From positions 1 through 42,609 of the forward strand of contig DAOWCC010000001.1 of assembly GCA_030639665.1 (NCBI GenBank): a stretch of DNA of 42,609 nucleotides, written 5' to 3'. Under the pieces are notes generated by a model that had not been told where the DNA came from, made no database searches, and saw only the letters and a program-made list of their open reading frames with translations. A program made the translations under genes and the position numbers. Source of the stretch: Elusimicrobiota bacterium (lineage in GTDB: Bacteria > Elusimicrobiota > Elusimicrobia > Elusimicrobiales > UBA9959). Numbering within the stretch: the stretch's first letter is position 1; each line of letters begins with the position of its first letter. Below are positions 2,071-42,609 of this stretch, piece after piece.

Positions 2071-2175
2071 GCAGGTTAAGATTAAGGCTGAGGTTGAGAA
2101 CGGCAAAATTAGGCGAATAAATTTAAATGGATGGGTTTTAGTTTTTTCTTGGTCTTGACCTAAATCTCAAACTGC
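2071..2175 (+). repeat. Hexamer-periodic long hairpin element, copy 1 (full)
   Basis: 5' arm 2071-2100 is gcag-gttaag-attaag-gctgag-gttgag-aa. 3' arm 2146-2175 is ttcttggtcttgacctaaatctcaaactgc. 26 of 30 positions pair, 6 of them G-U. Confidence 0.8.
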
Positions 2176-4095: not shown

Positions 4096-4145
4096 ATACA
4101 TAGGTAATAAGGCAATTAGGTAACAAGGAATAAGGAGAAAAATTT

Positions 4146-8094: not shown

Positions 8095-8284
8095 ATAGAG
8101 AGTAGGGAGTTTTCCGCCATTACTACTTAGGCGGACCCGCCAATGCTTTAGTGGCGGGAGAGTTGAACAAAAAAACCAGCTTGGCAGTAGGCAGTAAGAA
8201 ATAAAAAGATTTAGATTCAGTGAAGTTTATTAAAATATTTGAGGCCAGGTTCCAATGCGATAACAGGCTTCTAAGAGGTGAAAT

Positions 8285-9763: not shown

Positions 9764-9845
9764 GAATTTAAATCCCGCCGCACTCCGCTAAAAGCGGGAG
9801 AAGCGCGGAAAACCACATAGTGATTTTTTAAGGAGAATTATAAAT

Positions 9846-10397
9846 ATGGCTAATGATGCTAAAGAAACCAAGATGGAAACTGCCAATAAAGGCAATAGAA
9901 AATCCGACGGAGGAGTAACCTTTAATAAGGATATTCTTACGGAAGAAAAAAGCATAGTTGTTACCATAAACAGGGTGACAAAAGTTGTTAAAGGTGGAAA
10001 AAGAATGTCTTTTAACGCTCTTGTCGTAAATGGAAACGGAAATGGCTCCGTAGGCGTGGGAGTTGGAAAATCCAATGAAGTTCAGGGAGCTATTATGAAG
10101 GCGACTCAGGTTGCTAAAAAAAATATGATTGATTTTCCTTTGATTGAAAGCAGTATTCCTCATGAGATAATAGGAAAATTTGGAGCGGGAAAAGTTTGGA
10201 TGAAACCGGCGGTTTCAGGAACGGGTCTTATTGCCGGCGGCGGAGTTAGAGCGGTTCTTGAAGTTGGCGGAGTTAAAAATATTCTTACCAAAAACCTTGG
10301 AACCAGAAATTATTTTAATAGCGTTTATGCGACGATGGAAGCTTTGAAAAATTTAAAAACCAGAGAAGAAGTTTTAAAATTAAGAGGCGTGGAATAA
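9846..10397 (+). CDS. rpsE: 30S ribosomal protein S5
   Basis: [36 protein letters not shown]... Confidence 0.96.
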
Positions 10398-10403
10398 ATT
10401 ACG

Positions 10404-10460
10404 GCAGATTAATATTGAGGTTAAGAAAAACTCTGAACCTTAATCTTAGCCTTGACCTGC
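10404..10460 (+). repeat. Hexamer-periodic hairpin element, copy 2 (short, degenerate), in the slot where rpmD normally lies
   Basis: gcag-attaat-attgag-gttaag-aa ... aaccttaatcttagccttgacctgc. Inner 9-bp stem attgaggtt/aaccttaat plus terminal gcag/ctgc. Confidence 0.65.
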
Positions 10461-10481
10461 AGTTAAATAGGAGATATTATC

Positions 10482-11000
10482 ATGGTAAGTTTAAACAATT
10501 TAAAGCCTAGAAAAGGTTCAACACATAGAAAGAAAAGACTTGGTTGCGGTCGGGGTTCAGGTCACGGAGAAACAAGCACGCGCGGACAAAAAGGGCAGAA
10601 TTCAACTTCCGGCGGTTCTAAAAGAAACGGTTTTGAAGGCGGACAGACGCCTCTTTTAAGAAGAATTCCCAAAAGCGGTTTTAATAACACCCGGTTTAGA
10701 ACGAAATATACATGGGTTAATGTCAGCGTTTTTGAAAAGTTTTTTGAAGGCGAGAAAGATATCAATATTGAGGTTTTAAAATCCAGAGGCTTGATAAAAA
10801 GAAAAGGCCTTTTAAAAATTCTGGGCACAGGTGATTTGAAAGCGGCTTTTAATGTTACGGCTCATTCATTTTCCGCGTCGGCAAAAGAAAAAATAGAAAA
10901 GGCCGGCGGAAAAACCGTTGTAATCGAACTTCCCGCAAAGCCCCAAAAAGCTCTGAGTAAAAGACAAGAACTAAGAGCCAAGAAGTTCGCTTCTAAATAG
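10482..11000 (+). CDS. rplO: 50S ribosomal protein L15
   Basis: LNNLKPRKGSTHRKKRLGCGRGSGHGETSTRGQKGQ... Confidence 0.95.
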   Translation: MVSLNNLKPRKGSTHRKKRLGCGRGSGHGETSTRGQKGQNSTSGGSKRNGFEGGQTPLLRRIPKSGFNNTRFRTKYTWVNVSVFEKFFEGEKDINIEVLKSRGLIKRKGLLKILGTGDLKAAFNVTAHSFSASAKEKIEKAGGKTVVIELPAKPQKALSKRQELRAKKFASK

Positions 11001-13892: not shown

Positions 13893-13922
13893 GCAGGTCG
13901 AGATTAAGATTAAGGTTCAGAG
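13893..13922 (+). repeat. Hexamer-periodic element, copy 3 (5' arm only, followed by T9)
   Basis: gcag-gtcgag-attaag-attaag-gttcag-ag, then ttttttttt. Only a weak, partial 3' partner at 13933-13952. Confidence 0.6.
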
Positions 13923-13996
13923 TTTTTTTTTACCGCAGTCTAAATCTGTCGCAGAACACTATCTAATATAGTCATTATTTGGTACAATAGGAAGAT

Positions 13997-15327: not shown

Positions 15328-15348
15328 ACAGAGAACAGAGAACAGAGA
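15328..15348 (+). repeat. Tandem heptamer (acagaga) x3 directly after the rpsK stop
   Basis: acagaga at 15328, 15335 and 15342. A pyrimidine-rich partial complement (agtttctgtcccctg) lies about 25 nt downstream. Confidence 0.7.
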
Positions 15349-16046: not shown

Positions 16047-16203
16047 GGCGTGTGACAAAAGCGGCGATTTGGCTGCAAAAGCAATCAAAAACGCGAGCTT
16101 TTAATCAGCAAAAATATATGTAGGGTTTTTCCGCTTGCCAAACCAGTGTCAGTTAGATTTTTGACGGGCAGGTGGCGACCCCAGAATTAGGAGGCAGTAC
16201 ATT

Positions 16204-22099: not shown

Positions 22100-23437
22100 A
22101 TGTTTTTACAGAAATCAAAAATAAAGAAAAGTCGAATAGATTGGTTTTTTTTGGGAGCTATTGCCATATTATTGATAATAGGGACAATATCCATTTTTTC
22201 TTCAGTGGCGGCTCTCGGCAATCAGGCCAGGATAGTAAGAACGCATCTTTTGGCTCTTCCAATCGCGTTTACGGCTTTTCTTTTTGTATGGAATTTTAAT
22301 TATCAGGTTTTTCAAGATCAATGGAAAATTGTTTATGCCGCCATAATTATAGCTTTAACGGGAGTATTGTTTTTTGGCATTGCCGATAAAGGAGCTCAAT
22401 CATGGTTTAGGCTTCCGTTTTTTTCCGTTCAGCCTTCGGAATTCGCGAGAATAGGGTTGATACTTGTTATGGCGAATTATCTTGATAAAAGTATCGGTAA
22501 AATAAAAGAATTTTCGACGGTTTTAATCGCTTTGGGGATATCGGCTCCTGTTTTTTTCTTGCTTATTAAACAGCCTGATTTTTCAGCTATTTTGACAATG
22601 CTGCCCATAGTTTTAATAATGCTTTTTTGCGCGGGCGCGAGATTATTTCATATTTTTATAATCATGGGTTTTGCTTTTACAACCGCTTTATTGCCGATTC
22701 TGTGGACTATGATAGATTTAAATCCCAATCTTATGCAAAATTCTTTCATAAATTTCTTTTACAGTCTTTCTCGGTTTAACTGGTATTTAGCCGCGGTTTT
22801 GGCGGGATTAATTGTTTTCGCGTATATATTTTGGTTTGTATTTTCAAAATTTTACCGGAATATATCAAAACTTTATTTTGTCGGCATAGCGCTGGTTATA
22901 GCATTGGGTTTATTTTCGGGAATCATCGTAAAAAAGCAAATGAAATATTATCAGCAGAAGAGACTTGAAGTATTTCTTTCTCCCAATACCGATCCCAAGG
23001 GGGCCGGCTATAATTTAATTCAGGCGCAGGTGGCGATAGGTTCGGGCGGACTTATGGGAAAGGGAGTTTTTTCCGGCACGCAGGCAAAACTGGGTTTTGT
23101 TCCCGAGAGGCATACTGATTTTATTTTGGCGGTAATAGGCGAGGAAATGGGATTTGTCGGCATAATATTGGTTATGGGTTTATATATTTTTCTAATGAGA
23201 AGAATTGTAAGTACCGCTTATATAGCGCGAGACAGGTTTGGCTATTTGGTGAATTGCGGGATATTCGGTATGTTTATGGTTTATTTTAGCGTTAATTTCG
23301 GTATGCTTTTGGGTTTAAATCCCGTCGCGGGCGTGCCATTGCCGTTATTATCTTATGGCGGTTCAAATTTGGTTTCAACCATGATTGCGATAGGAATAAC
23401 GCAATCCATTTATTCCAGAAGGTACGCGTTGACATAA
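22100..23437 (+). CDS. rodA: rod shape-determining protein RodA (SEDS family)
   Basis: FtsW/RodA/SpoVE profile: QPSEFARIG, PERHTDFI, PLPLLSYGGS. Confidence 0.93.
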   Translation: MFLQKSKIKKSRIDWFFLGAIAILLIIGTISIFSSVAALGNQARIVRTHLLALPIAFTAFLFVWNFNYQVFQDQWKIVYAAIIIALTGVLFFGIADKGAQSWFRLPFFSVQPSEFARIGLILVMANYLDKSIGKIKEFSTVLIALGISAPVFFLLIKQPDFSAILTMLPIVLIMLFCAGARLFHIFIIMGFAFTTALLPILWTMIDLNPNLMQNSFINFFYSLSRFNWYLAAVLAGLIVFAYIFWFVFSKFYRNISKLYFVGIALVIALGLFSGIIVKKQMKYYQQKRLEVFLSPNTDPKGAGYNLIQAQVAIGSGGLMGKGVFSGTQAKLGFVPERHTDFILAVIGEEMGFVGIILVMGLYIFLMRRIVSTAYIARDRFGYLVNCGIFGMFMVYFSVNFGMLLGLNPVAGVPLPLLSYGGSNLVSTMIAIGITQSIYSRRYALT

Positions 23438-23450
23438 AATGGAGGACTGG

Positions 23451-23486
23451 AAGATTAGAGGATTAGAAGATTAGCAACAGCAAAAG
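23451..23486 (+). repeat. Tandem octamer A(A/G)GATTAG x3 followed by CAACAGCAAAAG
   Basis: aagattag (23451), aggattag (23459), aagattag (23467), then caacagcaaaag. A related array lies at 25859-25909. Confidence 0.7.
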
Positions 23487-25858: not shown

Positions 25859-25909
25859 AGTGTTAGAGGATTAGAGGAATGGAGGAATAGATGATTAGCA
25901 ACGGCAAAG
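25859..25909 (+). repeat. Degenerate tandem octamer array (AGGATTAG-like, x4-5) followed by CAACGGCAAAG
   Basis: tgttag, aggattag (25867), aggaatgg (25875), aggaatag (25883), atgattag (25891), then caacggcaaag. Confidence 0.65.
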
Positions 25910-30226: not shown

Positions 30227-30910
30227 ATGAATCATAAGAAAAAAGCGGTGATTATGTTTTCGGGCGGTCTTGATTCCACCGCGGCTTTGTGTTGGGCCTT
30301 GGATAAAGGTTATGAATGTTTTGCCGTAACCATTTCATATGGACAGAAGCATATTAAAGAGAAAAAAAGCGCTCAACGCATAGCCAAATTATTGGGTGTT
30401 AAATTATTTGATTTAAAACTGGATTTGCCTTGGCTTAAAAGCAGCTCTTTGGTTGATAAAAATAAAAAAATTCCCAGTTTTAAAGTTTCTGAAATAAATG
30501 GTAAAAAAATTCCGTCCACTTATGTGCCGGGCAGGAATCTGATGTTTACTTCCATAGGTGTTTCTTTGGCTGATTCCATTAAAGCCGAAGCGGTTGTTTT
30601 AGGTCCCAATATAGTGGATTATTCCGGCTATCCCGATTGCCGCCCCGTGTTTTATAATGCTTTGGAAAAGGCCGTTAATTACGGCACGGAAGCGGGAAGT
30701 TCGGGCGGTAAAATAAAATTGCTTATGCCATTGATAAAAATGAGCAAGGCGGACATTATAAAGCTTTCAATCAAATTAAAAGCGCCGCTCAAATATACCT
30801 GGTCCTGCTATTCGGGTTTAAAAAAGCCTTGCGGTGATTGTGATTCCTGCAAGCTTCGAGCGAAAGGTTTTGCCGAGGCCGGCATTAAGGATCCCGCGTT
30901 AATAAAATGA
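30227..30910 (+). CDS. queC: 7-cyano-7-deazaguanine synthase
   Basis: AVIMFSGGLDST; C-terminal Zn cluster CYSGLKKPCGDCDSCKLR. Confidence 0.93.
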   Translation: MNHKKKAVIMFSGGLDSTAALCWALDKGYECFAVTISYGQKHIKEKKSAQRIAKLLGVKLFDLKLDLPWLKSSSLVDKNKKIPSFKVSEINGKKIPSTYVPGRNLMFTSIGVSLADSIKAEAVVLGPNIVDYSGYPDCRPVFYNALEKAVNYGTEAGSSGGKIKLLMPLIKMSKADIIKLSIKLKAPLKYTWSCYSGLKKPCGDCDSCKLRAKGFAEAGIKDPALIK

Positions 30911-31600
30911 TTAAGGCCAAGATAAGTGAAATATTTTGTTCAATTCAGGGCGAGGGCTTATATCTCGGTCAAAAACAGATTTTCGTAAGATTTGCGGGTT
31001 GTAATCTTGATTGCGACTATTGCGATGAATCCAAAGCGAAAGATGGTGAAAAATTTTCTCTGCAATCACCGGAAGAAGTTGTTGAAAAAATAAAATTATT
31101 CAAAAAAAAAAGAAAATCCCGAGGCTGTCTCTTTAACCGGCGGGGAGCCTTTATTGCAAATGGCTTTCATAGAAAAACTTTTGCCTTTGATTAAAAAAAC
31201 AGGACTTCAAATTCATTTGGAAACAAATGCCGTTTTATTTAAGGAGTTTGAAAAGATAGCTGAAATGGCAGATGTGATTGCCGCTGATATAAAGCTTCCG
31301 AGCGCTACCGGAAAATCCCTTTGGACTGAGCATGAAGAATTTCTGCGCTTAGCGCCTGAAAAAATTTTTGTTAAAATTGTCGTTACTTCAAAAACAAAGC
31401 TTGATGAAATTCAAAAAGCTTTTGAGATGATAAATAAAATTTCTCCTAAAATGCCGGTTTTTATTCAGCCCGTTACGGAAAGTGGAGTTGTAAAAAAACC
31501 CGGAAAAGAGTTTTTTGACAGAATTGAGAAAATTTCTTTAAATATGAAAATGAAGTATAAAATTTTGCCGCAACAGCATCCCATCTGGGGAATAAGATAA
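30907..31600 (+). CDS. queE: 7-carboxy-7-deazaguanine synthase (radical SAM), interrupted by a frameshift in an A10 run (31102-31111)
   Basis: EIFCSIQGEGLYLGQKQIFVRFAGCNLDCDYCD in frame 0. AVSLTGGEPLLQ...HLETNA continues in frame +1. With A9 the two join as ...KLFKKKENPEAVSLTGGEP. Confidence 0.88.
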
Positions 31601-31692
31601 ACAGCAGGTTAAGATTAAGGTTGAGATTAAGATAGTTAGCTAAACTTAATAGAGGTTTCTTGTTTTTCTTGGTCTTAATCTTGATCTGCTGT
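31601..31692 (+). repeat. Hexamer-periodic long hairpin element, copy 4 (best preserved)
   Basis: acagcag-gttaag-attaag-gttgag-attaag (31601-31632) pairs with ttcttggtcttaatcttgatctgctgt (31666-31692): 26 consecutive pairs, 6 of them G-U. It starts at the first nt after the queE stop. Confidence 0.85.
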
Positions 31693-31706
31693 TCTTTGGA
31701 GGAAAT

Positions 31707-32012
31707 ATGAGTGAAGAAACTTTTTTGATTGATTGTCCTTTATGTGAAGCCAGGATTGAAGTGGAAAGAAAAACAGGCAAGGTCGTAAAGCATTGGGCGA
31801 AACCTAAATTGAAAAAAGGGGAAGACCCTTTTAAAAAGGCTCTTGAAGGAATTAAGGCGAATGAAAATAAGCTGGATGATTATTTTTCAGGGGCGCAGAA
31901 TTCTATGGAAGATAAAAAGAAAGAGCTTCTGGATAAATTTGAAAAAGAGAAAAAGAGAATTAAAGATTCGGGAGATACTTCAAAGCCCATTAATCCTATG
32001 GATTTAGATTAG
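31707..32012 (+). CDS. small hypothetical protein with one CxxC knuckle and a Lys/Glu-rich tail
   Basis: GGAGG upstream; DCPLCEARIEVERKTGKVV; no family recognised. Confidence 0.55.
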   Translation: MSEETFLIDCPLCEARIEVERKTGKVVKHWAKPKLKKGEDPFKKALEGIKANENKLDDYFSGAQNSMEDKKKELLDKFEKEKKRIKDSGDTSKPINPMDLD

Positions 32013-32195
32013 TAAGCGTTTATTGAGTTAATAGAGTGGACTACGCTATCATGTCGTGAGTTGGCAGGACACCCATAAGCGCTCAAGTTAATGGCGTTTG
32101 TAGCGTAGTTAAGGAGTATAAGGGAGTCTGTTTCTGATATTTACACAATAAACTCTAAAAACGCTGAACGCAATGAACGCTTTATATTTTAACTA

Positions 32196-32226
32196 AGGAC
32201 CTATTTCCGTATGGGTCCTTTTTTCT
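32196..32226 (+). terminator. Intrinsic terminator-like hairpin plus T-run upstream of PLD paralog 1
   Basis: aggaccta (32196-32203) / tgggtcct (32212-32219), 8 bp including one G-U, followed by a T-run. Confidence 0.6.
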
Positions 32227-32283
32227 TATTTTTATGCCTTTATGACTCTTATAACAATGGGACTTTATGTATAAAATGTAGAT

Positions 32284-33945
32284 ATGATAAATAACAAAAA
32301 TTCACTTATCAAAACTTTTTTCTTATTTCTCATCATATTTCAGTTAGTCGCGGTTCAATCCGCTATTGCCCTTGGCGAAAATGAAATAACCGCCAATTAT
32401 AAAGAAAAAATAATAAACACATCCCACGCGCTCGGCATTGGCGTTTATGAAGATTTTCCGGTTGAATTTGCCGGAGAAGATAATGTTTTAAAAAATATGG
32501 ATATTGTTTATTCTAAAACCACCGCTTTTGGAAAGGCGCAAGATATTACAATTCCCGCGCCCAAGAGAATCGTTCCCGAAAGAACTTTTACGGATGAAGT
32601 TGAAGGTTATTGGGGTTATGCCACCACTCTCTATTATATTTTTAAAACCAAAATCGCGGATTCAGGTATTCTTCCGTGGAAAGACGGAGCGCCTTCTTTT
32701 GAGGAATCATCCCGAAAAGCTATCGCCAGGGTAAAAAATTCCGATTTTCCGTCCAGAAAGGCAGGGCAGACTTCTTTGCTTAAAAATGAAGGTTTCTTAA
32801 AAGAAATGGAATCTCTTTCAGGCGCCAAATTTACCGATGGCAATACCTCCGAATTTCTTATAGACGGAAAAGCTTCTTTTGGCATGAAGGATAAGCTTAT
32901 AAAAGAAGCCAAGAAAAGCATATATATAGCAAGCTATTCTTTTCATGATGATATTACGGGTTATGAAACATCGGATATGCTTATAGCCCAGAAAAAAAAG
33001 GGTATTGATATTAAAATAATAGTGGATCATAAGGTGGTTAATATCTCGGGGAGAATTGTCAAACGCATGCAGAAAGCCGGCATAGAAGTTATCCGTTATA
33101 TAGATTCAAAAAGAACCGGAGATTATTGGCATGTTAAATTATTGATGGTGGATGATAAATACGCCATAGTCGGCGGCATGAATTACGCGGATTATTATTC
33201 TCATAAAAATCCCGATACCCCCCAATGGCGCGATACCGATGTTCTTTATACCGGGCCCGCCGTGATGGAATCTAGAAAAATATTCGCCGGAATTTGGAAT
33301 GGCCTGATTAAAGAAAAAAAGCTCTCTTTCGACAGCATGGATGAAAATATTAATTCCAATGAGGCCAGTGGCGGCTCGGCCCGCATAGCGGTAATGTATT
33401 GGAATCCGCCTTTAGGTTCTCCCACGATACTTTTAAGCATTATTAAAGCGATTTACGGAGCCACCGAACGCATTAATATCGAAAATCCTTATTATGTCGC
33501 GGTGCCGGCCATAACTCAAGCCGTATTGGATGCCAAGGCGCGCGGCGTGGAAGTTAATATTTTAACCAATTCTAAGAAAAGCATAGATCGCGACGGCAAG
33601 CCTATGGCTGATGTTATAATCAAGGGCCTGATTCCTTTAGTTTCTTCCGGCATAAATGTGTATTTAAAAAAAGGCGATACTCTTCATAGTAAATTTATGA
33701 CCATAGACGGAGTTTATTGTAATATCGGTTCGTATAATTTTCATCCCAGAAGTGAAAGATACGATACGGAAATGAATATCAGCATAATAGACCCGGCATC
33801 TGTTAAACAGCTTAATGAGGTGTTTGAGGAAGATTTGGCTGAGGCCATTAAAATAAACACTGTGGAAGATTTGGAATATGAGCCCGGCTGGCTGGCTAAA
33901 ATGATGGAAAAATATTTTTACGCTGAACTTTCACGGAAGAAATAA
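32284..33945 (+). CDS. secreted or membrane-anchored phospholipase D superfamily protein, two HKD motifs (paralog 1)
   Basis: N-terminal hydrophobic signal FFLFLIIFQLVAVQSAIA; HVKLLMVD...GGMN and HSKFMTID...GSYN. Confidence 0.85.
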   Translation: MINNKNSLIKTFFLFLIIFQLVAVQSAIALGENEITANYKEKIINTSHALGIGVYEDFPVEFAGEDNVLKNMDIVYSKTTAFGKAQDITIPAPKRIVPERTFTDEVEGYWGYATTLYYIFKTKIADSGILPWKDGAPSFEESSRKAIARVKNSDFPSRKAGQTSLLKNEGFLKEMESLSGAKFTDGNTSEFLIDGKASFGMKDKLIKEAKKSIYIASYSFHDDITGYETSDMLIAQKKKGIDIKIIVDHKVVNISGRIVKRMQKAGIEVIRYIDSKRTGDYWHVKLLMVDDKYAIVGGMNYADYYSHKNPDTPQWRDTDVLYTGPAVMESRKIFAGIWNGLIKEKKLSFDSMDENINSNEASGGSARIAVMYWNPPLGSPTILLSIIKAIYGATERINIENPYYVAVPAITQAVLDAKARGVEVNILTNSKKSIDRDGKPMADVIIKGLIPLVSSGINVYLKKGDTLHSKFMTIDGVYCNIGSYNFHPRSERYDTEMNISIIDPASVKQLNEVFEEDLAEAIKINTVEDLEYEPGWLAKMMEKYFYAELSRKK

Positions 33946-33985
33946 GTTTGGATAGTAGATATAAATATTTAAAGGAGTCTTTAAT

Positions 33986-35023
33986 ATGAAAAAATATCTG
34001 ATAATTTCAATTTTAATTTTGTTGGCGCAAGGAAGTTACGCGCAAAACGCTGAATTTTTAAAATTATCGTCCAATATTAAATCCATAGATATCGGCTCAT
34101 TGCAGGATAAAGCGGAAATGCCGTTATTGGCGTCCCTCGCGTCAATCAAAGAAGAAAATTCAGTGCCCGTCAATGATTTGGAATTTTCCAAAGAATATGT
34201 TTTACAACAGATTATGGCTGAAACTTGGGATCTAGTGGAAAATATCGATTCAATTATACTGTTTCCCAAAAAAATAATGGGTGACGCGCGTTTATACATT
34301 TTAACGCGATTTTTTGAAGAGACCTATAATTATTCTTTAGTAAATAAAAGTGCCGGCGCGTCAGTTGACAGGCTCGCGCTTATTAACGCCATATGGGCTT
34401 TAGGTGAATTGGGTAATTCCGCGTCCGTAAAAACCATAATTAAGGCTTTTCCTTCAGCCGATCAGACAATGCGTTTAAATATGATGGCGGCCCTCGGTAA
34501 AATAAAATCGCCGCAAGCATCCAAAGAACTGAATAAAATAATGATTGACGGCGGAAATGAAGAAATGAGTTTCATTGAAGCGGGAGATATTGTGTTTCGC
34601 AAAGGTTATTTCGGTTTGCTTAATCCGATAGTTAAAGCGCAATCGGTTGGACATGTCGCTGTTTATGTGGGCATGGAAAACGGCGAGCCAATGGTTATAG
34701 AGGCATGGACATCCATGAGAAAAGCTTCATTGCGCAAGTATATAGGTAATTGGCCTTTTTATGGGAATTACACTACATATCCCAAACCGACTATGGAGCA
34801 AAGAAATAAAATAGTCGATTATGCGACCGCCCAACTGGGAAAACCTTTTTCTATCCTGCATTTAAGTCAAAAAGGCAGTGAAAAATTTGATTGCGTGGGT
34901 TTGGCGGAGGCCGCTTATGAAGCGGCGGGTTTAAATCCCACTCCCGATGAACTCGAAATTGGCTGGGGCTGGCCGCTTACTCCCACCGAGCAATATGAGA
35001 ATGTTTTTCCAAATTTTAAATAA
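33986..35023 (+). CDS. secreted HEAT-repeat protein with a C-terminal permuted papain-like (NlpC/P60 clan, C92 YiiX/YaeF-like) domain
   Basis: Signal MKKYLIISILILLAQGSYA. HEAT-like AIWALGELGNSASVKTIIKAF...MMAALGKIKSPQASKEL. GDIVFRKG...GHVAVYVG...VIEAW...FDCVGLAEAAYEAAGL places His before Cys, the permuted order. Confidence 0.65.
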   Translation: MKKYLIISILILLAQGSYAQNAEFLKLSSNIKSIDIGSLQDKAEMPLLASLASIKEENSVPVNDLEFSKEYVLQQIMAETWDLVENIDSIILFPKKIMGDARLYILTRFFEETYNYSLVNKSAGASVDRLALINAIWALGELGNSASVKTIIKAFPSADQTMRLNMMAALGKIKSPQASKELNKIMIDGGNEEMSFIEAGDIVFRKGYFGLLNPIVKAQSVGHVAVYVGMENGEPMVIEAWTSMRKASLRKYIGNWPFYGNYTTYPKPTMEQRNKIVDYATAQLGKPFSILHLSQKGSEKFDCVGLAEAAYEAAGLNPTPDELEIGWGWPLTPTEQYENVFPNFK

Positions 35024-35169
35024 TTAAAATTTGTTTTCCGATTGTTCGTCAATTTATAATGGCGACAAGTCTCTGGCCTATAACCTAATTTAGGCCTTAT
35101 AGTCCTAAAAAAGTTATGTTGTTAAAGGTTGTTTTTTACTTGTAACCTGTGACCTAATTTAGGTCTTAT

Positions 35170-35200
35170 GGACCTAAATTTATATAGGTCCTTTTTTTTT
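35170..35200 (+). terminator. Intrinsic terminator-like hairpin plus T9 upstream of PLD paralog 2
   Basis: ggaccta-aatttata-taggtcc followed by ttttttttt. Homologous to 32196-32226. Two related hairpins lie upstream (35075-35105 and about 35146-35170). Confidence 0.6.
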
Positions 35201-35256
35201 GTTTTCATGCCTTTTTATCCCTTACGATAATTGTGTTTTATCCGTACACTATGGAT

Positions 35257-36921
35257 ATGATAAATAACAAAAATTCAATTATTAAAACTCTTTTCTTATT
35301 CCTTATTATATTTCAGTTAGTCGCGTTTCAATCCGCTATTGCTCTCGGCGAAAATGAAATAACCGCCGATTATAAAGAAAAAATAATAAACACATCCCAA
35401 GCGCTGGGTATCGGCGTTTATGAAGATTTTCCCGTTGAATTTGCCGGCGAGAATGATGCCACAAAAGATGCAAAGCTCGTTTATGCGAATCCTTCAGATA
35501 ATAGAGTAATAAGAGAAATTGTTCCCACCCTTGTCGATATGAATAAGAGCGGAGACACTTTTGAAGTTGGGTTTTGGGATCAAGCCGCGGTTATGTGGCA
35601 TAATGCCGGTTTTATCGCCACTTTTATCGGTTCTCAAATCGTTGATAGCGGATTCCTGCCCTGGGTTGACGCGGCTCCCACATTTGAAGATATTTCCGAT
35701 AGGGCCATTAAAACCGTTAAAAACAGCAAATACAAACATGGCAAAAAAGGCGTATCCTTATTTGAGAATGAAGGTTTTATAAAGGAATTGGAAGATATTT
35801 CGGGAGCGAAATTCGCGGGCGGTAATTCCACCGATTATTTAATAGACGGTCCGGAATCTTTTGCCATGAAAAATAAATTAATGAGTGGCGCCAAGAAAAG
35901 CATTTATGTCGCCAGCTGGGCTTTATATGATGATATTACCGGCAAAGAAGCTGTGGATTTGCTTATATCCAAACACAAAGAGGGACTTGATATAAAGGTT
36001 ATAGTGGATAAGAAAGTTGTAGGCATACATGGCGCTGTGGTAATAGGAATGTTGGAAGATGCCGGTATAGAAGTTCTCAGATATCAGGAGAAAGGAAGAA
36101 GCGCGGATGTCTGGCATATCAAGATGATAATAATAGATGATGAATATGCCATAGTGGGCGGCATGAACTTCGGTAATGTTTATTCTCATAGGGGAGGCGG
36201 ACCCAAATGGCGCGATACTGAAATTTTATATAGCGGCCCCGCTCTAGCCGATTCGATAAAAATTTTTGAAGATACTTGGAACGCGAAAATTAAAGAGGAT
36301 AAACTTTCTCTGACTTTCATGAAACCTTTCGCGGGTTCCATTGCGCCAAAGGGGGATGTGAGAATAGCTCCCGTAGTTCAGAATCCTCCCACAGATTCCA
36401 AAGTATTGTTAAGTATGCTTAAAGGAATTTACGGCGCGGGCAAAACGGTTAATATAGAGAACGCTTATTTTGTCGCTGTTCCCGCCATTACCGTGGCTGT
36501 TCTTGACGCTCTTGATAGAGGTGTTGAAGTTAATATATTGACAAATTCCGATAAGACCTTAAACGAGCAATGCAGGTCAATGTCGGTTCCTTTGCTAAAA
36601 AGCTTAGCTGTTCTTTTAAAATCAGGCGCCAATATCTATCTTAAGCAAGGCGATACCGTGCATAGCAAGTTTATGACCGTTGACGGAATATTCGCGAATA
36701 TAGGTTCTTATAATCTTCACCCCAGAGGCGAAAGATATGACACTGAACTTAATGTTAATGTCATAGGCTCTTCGGGCGTGCGAGAATTGGATGAGGCTTT
36801 TCAAAATGATATATCCAAAGCAAAAAAGATTTTAACGGTTGAAGAGCTTGGAATAAAGGATACATGGCTTTCAAGAATAATAGAAAATTATTTCCTGGCT
36901 CAGCTTAAACAGGGAAAATAA
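35257..36921 (+). CDS. secreted or membrane-anchored phospholipase D superfamily protein, two HKD motifs (paralog 2)
   Basis: Start chosen by homology to paralog 1 (MINNKNS...). HIKMIIID...GGMN and HSKFMTVD...GSYN. Confidence 0.85.
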   Translation: MINNKNSIIKTLFLFLIIFQLVAFQSAIALGENEITADYKEKIINTSQALGIGVYEDFPVEFAGENDATKDAKLVYANPSDNRVIREIVPTLVDMNKSGDTFEVGFWDQAAVMWHNAGFIATFIGSQIVDSGFLPWVDAAPTFEDISDRAIKTVKNSKYKHGKKGVSLFENEGFIKELEDISGAKFAGGNSTDYLIDGPESFAMKNKLMSGAKKSIYVASWALYDDITGKEAVDLLISKHKEGLDIKVIVDKKVVGIHGAVVIGMLEDAGIEVLRYQEKGRSADVWHIKMIIIDDEYAIVGGMNFGNVYSHRGGGPKWRDTEILYSGPALADSIKIFEDTWNAKIKEDKLSLTFMKPFAGSIAPKGDVRIAPVVQNPPTDSKVLLSMLKGIYGAGKTVNIENAYFVAVPAITVAVLDALDRGVEVNILTNSDKTLNEQCRSMSVPLLKSLAVLLKSGANIYLKQGDTVHSKFMTVDGIFANIGSYNLHPRGERYDTELNVNVIGSSGVRELDEAFQNDISKAKKILTVEELGIKDTWLSRIIENYFLAQLKQGK

Positions 36922-36965
36922 AAAGTGCTAAAACGCTAAAGAAACAGAGTTTTAACTAAAGATTG

Positions 36966-37008
36966 CCCCCACACATAGAGCATAAAGTATGTGTGGGGGT
37001 ATTTTTTT
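36966..37008 (+). terminator. Strong intrinsic terminator after PLD paralog 2
   Basis: cccccacacata (36966-36977) / tatgtgtggggg (36988-36999), a perfect 12-bp stem with a 10-nt loop, then tattttttt. Confidence 0.85.
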
Positions 37009-37013
37009 GTTTC

Positions 37014-37048
37014 TCTAAACTCTAAATTCTAAATTCTAAACTCTGAAC
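37014..37048 (+). repeat. Tandem heptamer TCT(A/G)AA(C/T) x5
   Basis: tctaaac, tctaaat, tctaaat, tctaaac, tctgaac. Confidence 0.75.
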
Positions 37049-37087
37049 TTTTTGTTTCTGTGGCAATATTCCCTTAAAAAACATAAA

Positions 37088-37648
37088 ATGTATCTTATGC
37101 ATACCGATATAAAAGAAGTGCTTATAACCGAAGAACAGATTGCGGTTCGCGTTAAAGAGCTTGCTAAAAGAATAAACAAAGATTATAAAGGGCGATGCCC
37201 CGTTTTTGTTGGCGTGTTGAAAGGATGCGTATTTTTTCTTTCAGACCTTTTAAAACATATAACAATAGATTGCCATGTTGACTTTATGGGTCTTTCGTCT
37301 TATTCGGGAACCAAGTCAACGGGAATTGTGAGAACGATTTTGGATTTAAAAGAGAGCATAGAAGACAGGGATGTTATAATCGTGGAAGATATAGTGGATT
37401 CCGGCCTTTCAATGGAATATCTTCTGCATAATTTTAAAAGCAGACGGCCAAAGACGGTAAAAATATGCACTATGCTTGATAAGCCCTCCGCCAGAAAAGT
37501 TCATATTCCGGTTAAATACGCGGGATTTAAAATCCCTGAAAAATTTGTAGTCGGTTATGGCTTGGACTTTAATGAGCTTTACCGCAATTTGCCTTATATC
37601 GGAGTAATTAAAAAATCAGTTGTTGAAAAGGATAAGAAATGCCGCTAA
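37088..37648 (+). CDS. hpt: hypoxanthine phosphoribosyltransferase
   Basis: VFVGVLKGCVFFLSDL, IIVEDIVDSGLSMEYL, KYAGFKIPEKFVVGYGLD. Start at ATG 37088 or 37097. Confidence 0.92.
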   Translation: MYLMHTDIKEVLITEEQIAVRVKELAKRINKDYKGRCPVFVGVLKGCVFFLSDLLKHITIDCHVDFMGLSSYSGTKSTGIVRTILDLKESIEDRDVIIVEDIVDSGLSMEYLLHNFKSRRPKTVKICTMLDKPSARKVHIPVKYAGFKIPEKFVVGYGLDFNELYRNLPYIGVIKKSVVEKDKKCR

Positions 37649-39486
37649 AAAAAATCTCCAACAAAATACCCTTAAATAAAAATAATAGACAAATTCTATT
37701 TTGGGCCATTACCTTTCTTCTTTTTATCGCGCTTTACCATAACTTTAAAAATTTGGAAACCGTGAAACAAATTCCTTATTCGGAATTTAAACAAAAATTG
37801 AAGTCCAAAAAAATATTGAAAGTAACTATCGCGCCTAATTTGATAAAAGGAGAAATGCAAGATAGCGGCGTGGATATTAAGTTTAGAACTTTACCCCTTC
37901 CCGACGCTAAGCTTATTGAAGATTTGGAAGCGAGCGGTATTAAATCTTTCGCGGGCGAGCCGGATAGAAGCTGGGTTCTCAGTTTGATTTTAAATGTGGG
38001 TTGGATTTTCCTTTTCATTTTTTTATGGTGGTTCTTATTTTTAAGGCAAGGCCAAATGGGCGGCAAAAGCAGTCCTATGAGCTTTGGGCGTTCGCGCGCT
38101 AAAGAGCAGGATGTAAAAAAACAGAAAGTCTCGTTTAAAAATGTTGCCGGTTGTGACGAAACTCTGGAAGAGTTGAAAGATATAGTGGATTATCTTAAAA
38201 ATCCCAAAAAATATAAACACTTGGGCGGTATTCTGCCCAAGGGAGTGCTTTTATTCGGCCCTCCAGGCACGGGTAAAACTTTGCTTGCCAGAGCTGTCGC
38301 GGGGGAAGCGCAAGTTCCTTTTTACACCGCTTCAGGTTCCGAGTTCGTTGAGATGTTTGTCGGCGTTGGAGCTTCGCGTGTTAGAGATTTGTTTGAAAAA
38401 GCCAAGAAAACCGCTCCCGCCATAATTTTTGTCGATGAATTGGACGCGGTCGGCAGACGGAGATTTGCCGGCATAGGCGGCGGCCATGATGAAAGAGAAC
38501 AAACTTTAAATCAGCTTTTGGTTGAGCTTGACGGTTTTGAAGGCAATGAGAATGTAATTTTAATTGCCGCGACCAATAGGCCGGATGTGCTTGATCCCGC
38601 CTTGCTTAGGCCCGGACGGTTCGACAGGCGCATAAATGTTCCCAGCCCCGATAGTAAAGGCAGGGAAGAGATTTTGCAGGTACACGCTAAAAAAATAAAA
38701 CTTGCTCCCGATATTGATCTTTCAATTATAGCCAGAAGAACTCCCGGTTTTGTCGGCGCTGATTTGGCCAATATTATAAATGAATCGGCGATATTCGCGG
38801 CAAGAAAAGACAAAAAATTTGTTGAGATGGAAGATATTGAAGAATCCATAGAAAGAGTCATAGCCGGGCCGCAGAGAAAATCAAGAATAATATCCGATAA
38901 AGAAAGAAGAGTCATTGCTTTTCACGAAGCCGGCCATGCCTTAGTCGCCAAGATTTTGCCTCATACGGACCCCGTGCATAAAATATCCATAGCGCCCAGA
39001 GGGCCGGCCTTGGGCTATACTCTGCAATTGCCTATTGAAGATAAGTACTTAACCACCAAGACCGAGATTGTAAATAAACTTTCAATTCTTTTGGGCGGCA
39101 GAGCCGCTGAAGAAATAGAGTTTAATGAAATTACAACCGGAGCGCAGGATGATTTATCCAAGGTTACCAATTACGCTCGAAAAATGGTTCTTGAATTTGG
39201 CATGAGTGAAAAAATAGGTTTAATAACTTTAAGAAAAGATGAGGACGAAGTGTTTTTGGGCCGCGATATTGCCAAACAGCCCGGTTATTCCAATGAAATG
39301 GCTAAGAATGTCGATGATGAAATTAAGAGAATAGTTAATGAATGTCATATAAAAACAAAGGAAATACTGGTTGATAAAAGACATTTGCTAACCGCTTTGG
39401 CTGAAAGGCTTTTGGAAAAAGAAGTTCTGGAATCTGAAGAAATTGACAAGATAGTTAATGGCGAAGCCGCTCCTCAAACCGCTTAA
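37639..39486 (+). CDS. ftsH: ATP-dependent zinc metalloprotease FtsH
   Basis: Two TM segments, [20 protein letters not shown] region, HEAGHA. Confidence 0.97.
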
Positions 39487-39488
39487 AG

Positions 39489-39873
39489 GCAGATTAAGAT
39501 TAAGGTTGAGGTTAAGAACAGCGAGATAAACTGCCAAAACAAATCTCCCCCCCAGCCCCTCTTTGTCAAAGAGGGGAGAAAGAATAAAACTTCCCCCTTT
39601 ACAAAAGGGCTTGTCCTTCCGAAGTCTTGGCGAAGGAGGAGGTTAGGGGGATTTTGACAGAATAAACGGCTCAAAACATTTGACAGGATTAACAGGATAA
39701 AACAGAAGCAAATCGCAGAGGACGCAGAAAAAGAATATTGAGAATAAAAAAACTTTGCGGACTCTCTGTGTGAAATCTCAGTGCCCTCTGCGTTAAAAAG
39801 AGTTCCCCGCCAAAGGCGGGTTAATTTATCTGCAGTATTTGTATTCTTGGGCTTGACCTTAATTTTAACCTGC
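39489..39873 (+). repeat. Composite element: hexamer-hairpin arms (copy 5) separated by a 325-nt GC-rich, hairpin-dense insert
   Basis: 5' arm 39489-39518 is gcag-attaag-attaag-gttgag-gttaag-aa. 3' arm 39844-39873 is ttcttgggcttgaccttaattttaacctgc. 28 of 30 positions pair (5 G-U). Confidence 0.75.
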
Positions 39874-39895
39874 AGTTCTATTTAAGGATTTATTA

Positions 39896-40672
39896 ATGTA
39901 TCTTCATTACGCGAAAAATATCATAGATATATTTGTTGTTTACGCCATAGTGTACCATTTGATACTCCTTATCAAGGGCACCAGAGCCATGCAGGTAATA
40001 TGGGGAGTTTTTATTCTCGCCATCATTACAGCCATAGCCAAACTTTTAAATTTATCCGCCACCATGTGGATGATGCAGCAATTTTGGCTTGCCGGTATTT
40101 TTCTTTTAATCGTGGTGTTTCAGCCTGAAATTCGTTCCGCTCTCGCTAATATAGGAACCAATCCTTGGGGAAGGATTTTGATGCCGCAAGAATATAAATT
40201 TATAAAAGAAATGATAAGCGCTTTGCGGGCCGCTTCTCACGACAGGACCGGAATGATTATTGTTCTTGAGCAGGATATGGGGCTTAAAGATATTATGGAC
40301 ACCGGCATTATGGTGAACGGAGAAGTAAGCAAAGAGCTTTTGCTCACAGTATTTTTTAATAAGACTCAGCTTCATGACGGGGCGGTAATAATAAGCAATA
40401 ATCGTCTGGTTGCCGCCGGCTGTATATTGCCTTTGACCGAACAAAGAGAGCTTTCAATGATGCTTGGCATGAGGCATAGAGCCGCTCTTGGTCTGAGCGA
40501 AATTTGTGATTCGATTATAATTGTGGTAAGCGAGGAAACGGGGCAAATCGCTTTGGCAAGAAACGGCAAGCTTCAGCAAGCGGTGGATATTGATAAACTT
40601 GAAAATATGCTTTATACTCTTTACCGCTCAAAATCGGAAAAAACTTTACTTAGAAGGCAGTCAAGACAATGA
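39896..40672 (+). CDS. cdaA: diadenylate cyclase CdaA (three N-terminal TM segments plus DAC domain)
   Basis: LHDGAVIISNNRLVAAGCILPLT, RHRAALGLSE, VVSEETGQIALARNG. Confidence 0.93.
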   Translation: MYLHYAKNIIDIFVVYAIVYHLILLIKGTRAMQVIWGVFILAIITAIAKLLNLSATMWMMQQFWLAGIFLLIVVFQPEIRSALANIGTNPWGRILMPQEYKFIKEMISALRAASHDRTGMIIVLEQDMGLKDIMDTGIMVNGEVSKELLLTVFFNKTQLHDGAVIISNNRLVAAGCILPLTEQRELSMMLGMRHRAALGLSEICDSIIIVVSEETGQIALARNGKLQQAVDIDKLENMLYTLYRSKSEKTLLRRQSRQ

Positions 40673-40767
40673 ATCTTCCCGAATTTATAGTCAAAAATTG
40701 GCAGATTAAAATCCTCTCGCTTATAATAGCCATCCTTATTTGGTATTTTAAACTCAGCAATATATAG
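40669..40767 (+). pseudogene. 32-codon remnant of cdaR/ybbR (N-terminal TM helix only)
   Basis: ATGA overlap with the cdaA stop. MNLPEFIVKNWQIKILSLIIAILIWYFKLSNI* resembles the N-terminal anchor of YbbR-domain CdaR. No YbbR domains follow in any frame. Confidence 0.45.
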
Positions 40768-40827
40768 GTCGCGTTGTTTGTCGTTCTTTTAATAAGTTTC
40801 CATATTTGATAAGTTATCGTAGTAGCG

Positions 40828-40857
40828 GCAGGTTGAGGTCAAGATTAAGGTTGAGAA
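40828..40857 (+). repeat. Hexamer-periodic element, copy 6 (5' arm only)
   Basis: gcag-gttgag-gtcaag-attaag-gttgag-aa. No 3' arm before the next gene. Confidence 0.6.
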
Positions 40858-40898
40858 AAAAATTTTTATTCTAAAAATAAAAGGAAACGAGGTAAAAA

Positions 40899-42609
40899 AT
40901 GAAAATAAAAAATATTGTTTTAGCCGGAATATTTTTACTGTTTGGAGCGTTCAGCTCAAGTTCAGCCGCTTTTAATCCTGAGGGCTGGGACAGCAATAAT
41001 AATTTTCCTCTTATAGGTTCGCCTAAAGCCAAAAAGGGCGGCGAGTTTAAATATTTCTGGACAAATTTTCCTCCCACATTAAGAACTGAGGGACCAAATT
41101 CACAGTTTGTGCCTAATAGTGAAATTCAGAGTTTGATGTATGAATCCTTGGTAGGTCTTCATCCCGAAACGATGGAATATGTTCCCGGACTTGCAGATTA
41201 TTGGAAAGTGTCCTCTGACAAAAGAAGATTTTCATTTCATATAAATCCGAAAGCCAAATGGTCTGACGGCAGTCAGGTTACTGCCGAGGATGTTGTGGCT
41301 ACTTGGGAATTCAGAACTCGTAAAGATATAAAAGACCCTTTTTCCGTTATGCTTTGGGGTAAGAGTTTTGAAAAACCGGTCGCTGAAAGCAAATATGTGG
41401 TTTCGGTAAAAACGAAAGAGCTTAACTGGCGTTTATTCTTGTATTTCGGAAACATGGCAATATATCCCGCTAAAGAAATAAAAGGGCTTACCGGAGATAA
41501 ATATCTTAAAGACTATAATTGGAAAATGTGGATGGGTTCGGGGCCTTATGAATTAAAGCCCGAGACTATTGTAAAAGAAAATTCCCTGTTTGTTACAAGA
41601 CGCAAAGATTATTGGGCTGAAAAAGAAAGAGCGAATATAGGTCTTAATAATTTTGACAAGATATCATGGAAAGTTATTTTAGATGAAGAATTGGCTTTTG
41701 AGAAATTTAAAAAAGGCGAAATTGACTATTATGTTGTGGGAAAAGCGCAAAGATGGATTGAGGAATGTGATTTTGACAAAATAAAAAAAGGCTGGATTCA
41801 AAAAAGAAAAATTTTTACGCAAGAGCCGAAAGGTCATGGCGGTTTTGTTTTTAATATGAGAAAACCGCCTTTTGATAATAAAAATGTCAGAAAAGCTTTT
41901 GCTTTTCTTGTCAACCGTGAAAGGCTTATAGATAAGCTTTTTTTTAATGAATATGATTATATAGACAGCTATTATCCCGGTGGAGATTGGGGTAATTCCG
42001 ATAATCCGAAAATTCGTTATAATCCGCGCCGAGCCGCAAGGCTTCTTAAAAGAGCCGGTTGGACAAATAGAAACAAAGACGGCTGGCGTGTCAATAAAGA
42101 CGGAGAAATTTTTGAATTGACTCTTGAATATGGTCAGCAAGGGTCTACCAGAATTCATAAGGTTATCAAAGAGGAGATAGAAAAAGCGGGAATTAAATTT
42201 AATCTTAAATTGATTGATTCCAGAACTTTAATGAAAAAAGTCAGTGAACGCAAGTTTACTATTCATTTTCAAAGTTGGAGAGCTACATTGTTTCCAAATC
42301 CGAAGAGTTCGTGGAATTCAGAGCTTGCCGGAGCGCACACAAATAATCTTCCGGGTTTTAAGAATAAAGGAGTGGATGAATTGTGTAAAAAATATAATGT
42401 TACATTTGACAGGGCGGAGCAGAAAAAGATTATAGGGGAAATAGACGGCATAATTTTTAGAGTTCATCCGTATGCTCTTGGATGGTATGGTAATAATAGT
42501 CGTGTTCTTTATGAGAATAAATTCGGACATCCTAAAGAGTATTTTTCAAAAATTGGCGATTACAATGATATAAAAACTTTTTGGTGGTATGATAGGGCAA
42601 AAGAAAAAG
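40899..42609 (+). CDS. ABC transporter substrate-binding protein, family 5 (peptide/oligopeptide type), 3'-partial at the window edge
   Basis: Not in the ORF track because no stop is reached. My translation from ATG 40899 stays open to nt 42609. Signal MKIKNIVLAGIFLLFGAFSSSSA; WSDGSQVTAEDVVATWEF; GPYELKPE; RKAFAFLVNRE. SD aaggaaacgagg upstream. Confidence 0.85.
   Translation, partial: MKIKNIVLAGIFLLFGAFSSSSAAFNPEGWDSNNNFPLIGSPKAKKGGEFKYFWTNFPPTLRTEGPNSQFVPNSEIQSLMYESLVGLHPETMEYVPGLADYWKVSSDKRRFSFHINPKAKWSDGSQVTAEDVVATWEFRTRKDIKDPFSVMLWGKSFEKPVAESKYVVSVKTKELNWRLFLYFGNMAIYPAKEIKGLTGDKYLKDYNWKMWMGSGPYELKPETIVKENSLFVTRRKDYWAEKERANIGLNNFDKISWKVILDEELAFEKFKKGEIDYYVVGKAQRWIEECDFDKIKKGWIQKRKIFTQEPKGHGGFVFNMRKPPFDNKNVRKAFAFLVNRERLIDKLFFNEYDYIDSYYPGGDWGNSDNPKIRYNPRRAARLLKRAGWTNRNKDGWRVNKDGEIFELTLEYGQQGSTRIHKVIKEEIEKAGIKFNLKLIDSRTLMKKVSERKFTIHFQSWRATLFPNPKSSWNSELAGAHTNNLPGFKNKGVDELCKKYNVTFDRAEQKKIIGEIDGIIFRVHPYALGWYGNNSRVLYENKFGHPKEYFSKIGDYNDIKTFWWYDRAKEK

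Follow-up and report, generated by a model that had tools for sequence, protein, structure and literature searches.

What are the long, hexamer-periodic hairpins that stand between the genes of an Elusimicrobiota bacterium: regulatory RNAs that each serve one operon, or members of a repeat family? We addressed this question in a stretch of 42,609 nucleotides (GenBank assembly GCA_030639665.1, contig DAOWCC010000001.1, positions 1–42,609 of the forward strand), the whole of which is referred to here as the window. A preliminary description of the window had listed six copies of the element, placed after stop codons, and had proposed a role at the RNA level. We assign a probability of about 0.55 to a different reading, in which the family is a dispersed, fast-turnover palindromic repeat of the REP (repetitive extragenic palindromic) or MITE (miniature inverted-repeat transposable element) kind, with arms of hexanucleotide microsatellite and co-transcribed as an intercistronic hairpin.

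Architecture and placement of the six copies

The element has the layout GCAG-(RTYRAG)n, variable loop, (CTYRRY)n-CTGC. Direct reading of each site found the GCAG-(RTYRAG)3–4 arm at all six positions named earlier, and a search for (RTYRAG)3 with at most one mismatch returned 14 matches in the window versus 0.08 expected, a number that none of 100 dinucleotide shuffles reached. The six-copy family with its strict 6-nt period is therefore real. A clear complementary CTYRRY/CTGC arm is present in four copies, the map copy has a decayed one, and the copy at 40828 is a solo 5′ arm. The number of hexamers and the loop differ from copy to copy, and the arms are A+T- and G-U-rich, with stems of 22–33 bp. 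The outer ends read ACNGCAG...CTGCNGT, and complete arms form terminal inverted repeats, as do those of MITEs. The window copies also have GAGAACRGCRARAT 3′ of the 5′ arm and TTTTCTTGGKCTTRA 5′ of the 3′ arm in common (repeat families D3 and D8). That these non-periodic inner segments and the termini are common to copies speaks for shared ancestry and against a local origin at each site.

Two copies differ from their first description. The map copy had been taken for a 5′ arm only, but a decayed 3′ arm follows it (Table 1), is 83% complementary to the rpsE copy (inverted pair I1), and is included in a covariance-model match at 13893–13949 (19.6 bits, E = 0.004). The copy at 40828 is indeed a solo 5′ arm, but it lies 155 nt past the cdaA stop and not directly after a stop codon; a promoter-like site is located upstream of it at 40698–40727. 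Nested in the loop of the ftsH copy (39519–39843) are further repeats and hairpins, about 325 nt in all, including a CCCGCCAAAGGCGGG hairpin at 39806–39820.

All six window copies are oriented as the genes, and five of them sit between co-directional genes in operon spacers, a context from which we infer that they are transcribed within operons. Five of the six begin 2–6 nt past a TAA stop, and those with a 3′ arm end 17–22 nt ahead of the next start codon, so they occupy the spacer between the stop codon and the ribosome-binding site (RBS). The genes flanking copies 1, 2, 3 and 5 and the gene downstream of copy 6 were identified by Pfam, and queE separately by comparison with a contig from ENA. 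The left flank of the stop-adjacent copies is TAA+A in 5/5 cases versus 17/50 of all stops in the window; this small sample hints at either a target preference or a context supplied by the element itself. Placement right after stops, which the preliminary description had given as a property of the family, is not obligatory outside the window, where a long open reading frame (ORF) ends at most 12 nt upstream in just 9 of 40 hairpin matches and 10 of 60 solo matches listed.

Two simple functions were considered for elements at such positions and rejected. The TAA and TGA triplets of the 5′ arm could act as in-frame back-up stops, but they share the frame of the upstream ORF in four of five window copies and in five of 13 copies elsewhere, which is the level of chance. 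An intrinsic terminator is unlikely because a U-tract is absent: the sequences directly 3′ of the 3′ arms are AGTAAAC, AGTTAAAT, TGTTCTTTGG and AGTTCTAT. A terminator scan of window positions 31000–41000 called no copy of the element.

Table 1 Copies of the hexamer-repeat element in the window, with the folding energy of the arms alone (kcal/mol, sense vs antisense).
Copy	Position	Strand	Location	5′ arm	3′ arm	Loop	Arms-only energy
1 (rplC)	2071–2175	+	rplC (L3)/rplD (L4) junction	2071–2100; GCAG + GTTAAG ATTAAG GCTGAG GTTGAG + AA	2146–2175; CTGC end	45 nt	−20.0 vs −19.6
2 (rpsE)	10404–10460	+	rpsE (S5)/rplO (L15) junction	3 hexamers	3 hexamers	12 nt	−15.9 vs −13.2
3 (map)	13893–13951	+	map (MetAP)/infA (IF-1) junction	13893–13922, then T9	13929–13951; decayed		−15.0 vs −10.7
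4 (queE)	31601–31692	+	junction of queE and 101-aa ORF	ACAGCAG + GTTAAG ATTAAG GTTGAG ATTAAG	CTTGGT CTTAAT CTTGAT + CTGCTGT		−33.5 vs −17.7
5 (ftsH)	39489–39873	+	ftsH/cdaA junction	39489–39518	39844–39873	39519–39843	−32.8 vs −24.6
6 (solo)	40828–40857	+	leader of SBP_bac_5 transporter gene	GCAG + GTTGAG GTCAAG ATTAAG GTTGAG + AA

Turnover among close relatives

Three junctions were compared with their counterparts in 80 metagenomic relatives of the window SecY, taken with 10-kb flanks. Junctions of ribosomal-protein operons are generally short and empty in these relatives. At rplC–rplD, the spacer measures −1 to 34 nt and lacks the element in all but one of them, and the exception is an unrelated 113 nt. 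At rpsE–rplO, an orthologous copy was found solely in one relative (L120, SecY 94%) and is heavily diverged: its ends are kept (GGCAG...CTGCAGTT), both arms have strongly diverged, the loop is longer, and the fold is weak (−15.8 kcal/mol over 101 nt). At map–infA, another relative (L121, SecY 92%) has a diverged copy, whereas the 52-nt spacer of L120 lacks it. Orthologous sites are thus polymorphic for the presence of the element, a trait of MITEs. No copies were found in relatives with SecY identity of 75% or less, and 944 kb of more distant relatives contained no RTYRAG arrays except coding ones.

Copies also occur where the window has none. The Elusimicrobia metagenome-assembled genome (MAG) NC_groundwater_1498 (L063, SecY 82% identical) is syntenic with the window and keeps the gene order adk, map, rpsM, rpsK, rpsD, rpoA, rplQ, which assigns the window to Elusimicrobia; its two hexamer hairpins occupy junctions at which the window has no insert. 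Alignment of three close relatives (82–86% DNA identity) revealed further spacer inserts, each in one of them only. The queE–ftsH segment of an ENA metagenome contig (L001) is identical to that of the window, queE copy included. Copies are gained, lost or diverged at 92–94% SecY identity and are therefore unlike a locus-specific regulatory RNA; the family behaves as a fast-turnover repeat, not as a conserved structured RNA.

Under the REP/MITE-like reading, copies would spread by copy-and-paste from a master element and then change by whole-hexamer slippage, which periodic arms tolerate because shifted registers still pair. Inserts within operons would survive only at the stop-to-RBS position, and only if the transcript folds compactly. 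Folding would keep the effective stop-to-start spacer at about 19–28 nt and would hide the extra RNA from Rho and from RNases, endonucleases among them. Survival of compactly folding inserts would in turn give rise to the G-U bias of the sense strand in the window, which is described below.

A rival explanation is a local, non-mobile origin, in which a microsatellite expands past a stop codon, template switching generates an inverted copy and quasi-palindrome correction maintains the complementarity of the arms. This scenario would account for the hexamer number varying between otherwise identical copies and for very long one-sided arrays in other genomes (L018, L090, L042, L056), and it fits the 7-nt periodic hairpins that two relatives (L130 and L121) carry at the same junctions as well as the several other periodic repeats in spacers of the window. 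We nevertheless consider it very unlikely, given that non-periodic inner segments and identical termini are common to copies, that at least five phyla have the same unit with the same GCAG ends, and that whole units are inserted in otherwise short spacers.

The spacers of the window and its relatives contain further inserts of several kinds. The heptamer hairpins have the same architecture with other units and stand at junctions that are short or otherwise filled in the window: in L121, an 83-nt hairpin at rpoA–rplQ has arms of the form (AGGCAAG)n...(CTTCYGR)n, and in L130 a different hairpin at rpsE–rplO has (YAGGGTA)n...(TACCCTR)n. A 157-nt insert occupies rpsD–rpoA in the window (16047–16203), where L120 and L121 have only TAA(G)TTTAGGAGG. 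A 370-nt adk–map insert is found only in L120; it contains several G+C-rich hairpins of the CCCGCC-N3-GGCGGG type, which also occur at 9774–9800, at 8130–8158 and, in the loop of the ftsH copy, at 39806–39820. These hairpins probably represent a separate REP-like family.

A second periodic family in the window (23449–23474 and 25863–25898) consists of units of about 8 nt (GARGATTA/GAGGAAT) followed by GCAACRGCAAA. Its two members directly follow the stop codons of genes that end at 23437 and 25853 and are 81% identical over 43 nt (family D16). In addition, AGGNAAYW octamers precede rpsS (4102–4137), (ACAGAGA)3 lies past rpsK (15328–15348), and (CTAAAYT)5 stands at 37015–37049, immediately ahead of the gene that starts at 37052. 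Spacers filled with periodic, low-complexity sequence seem to be the general pattern in this genome.

Some features of the neighbouring genes were recorded as well. The queE gene (30907–31600) is divided into overlapping ORFs (30907–31194 and 31154–31600) by a 1-nt difference in the A10 run at 31101–31110, and L001 encodes one intact QueE of 230 aa; the split is due either to a sequencing error in the homopolymer or to a genuine frameshift. In the region 9846–11000, rplO directly follows rpsE without rpmD (L30), whereas relatives at about 50% SecY identity encode L30 there. Tandem paralogous phospholipase-D-like genes (PLDc_2) at 32194–33790 and 35167–36766 were duplicated together with their upstream region (71–83% identity; families D1, D2, D4 and D5), which includes a terminator-like GGACCTA...TAGGTCC hairpin.

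Folding, strand asymmetry and covariation

RNAfold and a pair-by-pair count confirmed the 26 consecutive pairs, six of them G-U, that had been reported for the queE copy. They run from the base of the stem and are followed by a 2-nt internal loop and seven further pairs, and the whole copy folds at −36.0 kcal/mol on the sense strand (z = −6.6) versus −20.3 on the antisense strand. For the rplC copy, 26 of 30 positions had been said to pair, six of them as G-U. Its arms alone do pair (25 pairs, six G-U, by our count), but the full 109 nt fold no better than shuffles (z = −0.9). The rpsE copy folds at −15.9 kcal/mol sense versus about −13.1 antisense, with covariance-model scores of 46.4 and 32.0 bits, respectively.

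Considering arms only, the sense strand folds better in 5/5 paired window copies (Table 1), and an ungapped comparison of four window copies counted 21 G-U pairs on the sense strand versus seven A-C mismatches (p = 0.0125). Base composition gave a mixed picture, with no simple G+T skew that might account for these G-U pairs: four-fold sites have T>A but C>G, and intergenic sequence has G>C but A>T. A preference of the helix for RNA of the same sense as the flanking genes thus holds for the window. It carries over to other phyla less uniformly, with the antisense strand favored in 4/13 copies there, and the positions concerned are shared. Many of the G-U pairs in the window fall in the conserved segment TTCTTGGKCTTRA common to copies (repeat family D8), and a single master copy is their probable source. 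As paralogous copies have most of the G-U positions in common, the pairs do not represent independent events.

A search for compensatory changes between the arms, as proposed in the preliminary description, gave a negative result. Among 20 arm pairs in register, 91.8% of pairs are canonical versus 91.9% with partners shuffled, and the covariation score is 0.212 versus 0.209 shuffled; covariation does not exceed what column composition produces. The arms pair because both are built of one unit and its complement, not because of compensatory change. The covariance model mentioned above was constructed from these 20 arm pairs, linked by an artificial GAAA loop. Scanning with it, as had also been proposed, finds copies with short loops but misses those with long loops, and the model is therefore unsuitable for a census.

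These results bear on the proposal that each copy is a dedicated cis-acting RNA selected at its locus as an RNase III entry site, a 3′-end protector or an intercistronic attenuator. Parts of that proposal stand: the copies lie precisely between a stop codon and the next RBS, all six are oriented as the genes, for the queE and ftsH copies the sense strand gives by far the better fold, and 21 G-U pairs stand against seven A-C mismatches. A helix of 26–33 bp is long enough for RNase III, and the Correia elements of other bacteria provide a precedent. A dedicated regulator is nonetheless not backed by conservation or covariation. Copies are present or absent at 92–94% SecY identity and missing at 75% or less, the L120 orthologue of the rpsE copy has diverged heavily and folds weakly, the rplC copy is no more stable than its shuffles, and solo arms exist. 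With G-U positions that probably derive from a common master copy and an antisense preference in part of the other phyla, we regard selection of each copy as a regulatory RNA as unlikely.

A dispersed REP/MITE-like repeat could still affect the transcripts that carry it. By analogy with REP and Correia elements, an A-U/G-U helix of 26–33 bp would be a plausible substrate of RNase III and a barrier to 3′-exonucleases, and it may allow the cistrons on either side to differ independently in stability. REP hairpins stabilise upstream mRNA, and Correia hairpins are cut by RNase III, which changes mRNA stability. REPs within about 15 nt of a stop codon are said to be able to stall terminating ribosomes, reportedly a finding of Liang, Rudd and Deutscher from 2015; a hairpin 2–6 nt from the stop could likewise slow them. 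A role in mRNA processing or stability is, on these analogies, possible.

Distribution, precedents and significance

An exact-pattern scan of one genome per GTDB species yielded at least 118 stretches. Among the matches listed, about 40 are full hairpins of the same layout, hosted by Nitrospirota, Geobacter/Geomonas and other Desulfobacterota, Bacteroidota, Aminicenantes and Elusimicrobia; full GCAG hairpins in Geomonas are found at L045, L057, L087, L106 and L112. Approximately 26 matches listed, most of them from enterobacteria or from genomes of high GC content, fall in coding sequence and were discarded. The enterobacterial and actinobacterial matches are of this coding kind, for example on the opposite strand at a gene start, where the reverse complement reads LNLDLDLL, presumably the N-terminus of a LysR-type protein. 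The remaining matches listed are solo or very long one-sided hexamer arrays, e.g. in Kiritimatiellae, WOR-3 and Desantisbacteria. The order of the arms is fixed: in the loci fetched, 30 hairpins lead with the purine arm and have GCAG on the outer side, versus two everted ones. Phage carriage was rejected, as all 12 matches in viral contigs look coding and none is a hairpin, and a plasmid search gave no match. Rfam at gathering thresholds returned no match in the window and only tRNAs in 18 other element-bearing loci; at permissive thresholds it returned only sub-threshold look-alikes of microRNA precursors, which are generic long hairpins.

In MAGs of one Nitrospirota lineage (L011, L036, L046 and L118), the hexamer hairpin is located inside a MITE-like unit of about 150 nt, which has its own terminal inverted repeats ATACCAATTTGCCTTCATTC...GAATGCGAATTGGTAT, differing flanks, and a 3′ arm of two, three or four hexamers depending on the copy. 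In Aminicenantes CS4-C025, four copies (L030, L051, L059 and L091) lie in frame inside adenylation domains of nonribosomal peptide synthetases, between the LKAGGAYLPID and YTSGTTGRPKG motifs, and are translated as ...AAPAAKVKVEVKVKEKPIELIY...SSSTSTLTLTCEV... (KVKVEVKVK...STSTLTLT). Rickettsia palindromic elements are likewise palindromic repeats in frame in protein genes, but they have no sequence relationship to this family, and the window copies are all intergenic.

The closest published counterpart is in Geobacter. The G. bemidjiensis genome paper lists "hexanucleotide repeats, consensus [TCTYWA]n TCT" as Gbem_R6001-R6034 (Aklujkar et al. 2010, PMC2996986, Table S6, Figure S6): arrays of 3–6 units, mostly 3′ of one gene and 5′ of the next inside operons, at sites that include dnaN-recF, murG-murC, accB-accC and pgk-tpiA. 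Its authors describe direct repeats with function unassigned, and neither the hairpin nor the wider distribution (PMC2996986). TCTYWA is the reverse complement of the window ATTAAG/ATTGAG unit, with (R)TTRAG(A) units in register with TWRAGA. The arrays are intergenic, chiefly between co-directional genes or 3′ of genes, and six of six adjacent (−,+) inverted pairs in G. bemidjiensis put the purine array first. Differences are that about half of the G. bemidjiensis arrays are solo, that the host belongs to another phylum, and that the GCAG/CTGC ends, the RNA-level asymmetry and the occurrence beyond Geobacter are not described there. The contrast with MITE and REP elements drawn in the preliminary description was accordingly overstated: the hairpin lies inside a MITE-like unit in Nitrospirota, and the same unit is catalogued as a multicopy repeat in G. 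bemidjiensis.

Similar paired tandem repeats in G. metallireducens were read by the authors of that genome paper as possible binding sites of a global regulator (PMC2700814). Applied to the present family, this would make the hexamer or a hexamer pair the site of a DNA-level array for a global regulator, a nucleoid protein, or a recombinase or transposase. The iterated units, the conserved GCAG/CTGC ends and the solo arrays in either orientation in G. bemidjiensis agree with such an array. The uniform orientation of the window copies could reflect a process like that of the IS200/IS605 family, whose single-stranded DNA transposition is strand-specific and tied to replication. However, a 6-bp period places successive sites on different faces of the DNA helix, the copies are inside operons and 3′ of genes and not in promoter regions, the G-U asymmetry is meaningless for duplex DNA, and no candidate binding protein or transposase was found in the window or beside the copies. 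We therefore hold a DNA-level binding array to be decidedly unlikely.

Better-known repeat families resemble the element in part. REP sequences of enterobacteria and pseudomonads, which are associated with RAYT transposases, and the mosaic elements that they form (BIMEs, bacterial interspersed mosaic elements) are likewise short multicopy extragenic palindromes, transcribed in operons or at gene 3′ ends, with a conserved foot tetranucleotide. The REP foot is GTAG as opposed to GCAG/CTGC here, REP stems are G+C-rich, 20–40 nt and without tandem sub-repeats as opposed to A+T-rich hexamer arrays of up to about 33 bp, and no RAYT/transposase-like gene was found in the 42.6-kb window. Correia elements (CREE/NEMIS) of Neisseria and other transcribed MITEs (ERIC, BOX, RUP) have terminal inverted repeats that form long hairpins when co-transcribed, and their presence varies between strains. 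A conserved body of 100–155 bp, an IHF site and duplication of a TA target are features of Correia elements that were not seen in the present family, and the two show no sequence similarity. The short tandemly repeated repetitive (STRR) sequences of heterocystous cyanobacteria are tandem 6–7-nt units in intra-operon spacers, with several unit families per genome. They are heptamers of other sequence, restricted to cyanobacteria and mostly direct arrays, unlike the inverted hexamer pairs of the window. Integron attC sites (RYYYAAC...GTTRRRY) were rejected, as their polarity is the reverse of the GTTRAG arm 5′ and CTYAAC arm 3′ found here and the context is ribosomal-protein and housekeeping operons. 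A literature search with sequence strings retrieved only unrelated primers and markers. Hexamer arrays of this kind are already known from Geobacter, and what is added here is the occurrence of a catalogued kind of repeat in Elusimicrobia; the cross-phylum occurrence of the same unit and ends appears to be undescribed in the literature searched.

The comparison with Geobacter and Bacteroidota also bears on the idea that the element is a platform for ribosomes or RNA-binding proteins. Judging by sequence resemblance only, the purine arm (UAAGGU/UGAGGU), with AGG or GAG every 6 nt on the sense strand, could act as a Shine-Dalgarno-like or (G/A)AG array that is masked by an anti-Shine-Dalgarno-like arm, and could serve re-initiation after termination or the binding of a TRAP-like protein. 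Periodic AGG/GAGGA arrays do stand in other spacers of the window (4102–4137, 23449–23474 and 25863–25898). On the other side, the solo arrays of G. bemidjiensis are, by our own reading, mostly pyrimidine on the sense strand (11 vs 3), the in-frame stop codons contributed by the arms occur at chance level, and copies are present in Bacteroidota, which make little use of Shine-Dalgarno pairing. We give such a platform hardly any credence.

Several observations weigh against interpretation of the family as a dispersed REP/MITE-like repeat. No transposase or autonomous insertion sequence was found in the window or beside copies in 8-kb loci. The six window copies show no consistent direct repeat that would mark a target-site duplication, and the empty-site comparison with L120 gives GTCG on both sides, which is ambiguous. 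The loops are barely conserved between copies, unlike those of typical MITEs, and the solo arms of the window and of Geobacter need no hairpin. In copies of other phyla whose direction can be inferred from a long ORF ending just upstream, the sense strand folds better in eight, the antisense strand in four, and one is equal. Finally, a near-identical unit with GCAG ends across phyla is hard to reconcile with a purely selfish element; either extensive horizontal transfer or a functional constraint common to the hosts would be needed. A single horizontally spreading, "operon-safe" module in at least five phyla, with slippage-tolerant arms and with ends and unit recognised by a conserved machine (a single-strand DNA transposase, RNase III or the terminating ribosome), would make the family a hitherto unrecognised pan-bacterial intercistronic class instead of a set of lineage-specific repeats. 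This extension is conceivable, but we regard it as doubtful.

For annotation, the reading as a dispersed repeat means that such spacers should be labelled as repeats, and no longer listed among small-RNA or riboswitch candidates. Because copies come and go rapidly, they are useful for telling strains apart in metagenomes of Elusimicrobia, Nitrospirota and Geobacter. They can also break assemblies. Inserts of 60–400 nt are tolerated even in ribosomal-protein clusters as constrained as S10, spc and alpha, on the present reading as long as they fold, and the family offers naturally occurring cases in which to gauge how much structured RNA can stand between a stop codon and an RBS before translational coupling is lost or polarity sets in. 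Geomonas bemidjiensis is an isolate that carries related hexanucleotide repeats. The most interesting point is the distribution of the unit and its ends across phyla: if this identity reflects shared recognition, it would point to a mobilising enzyme or to a rule of RNA processing.

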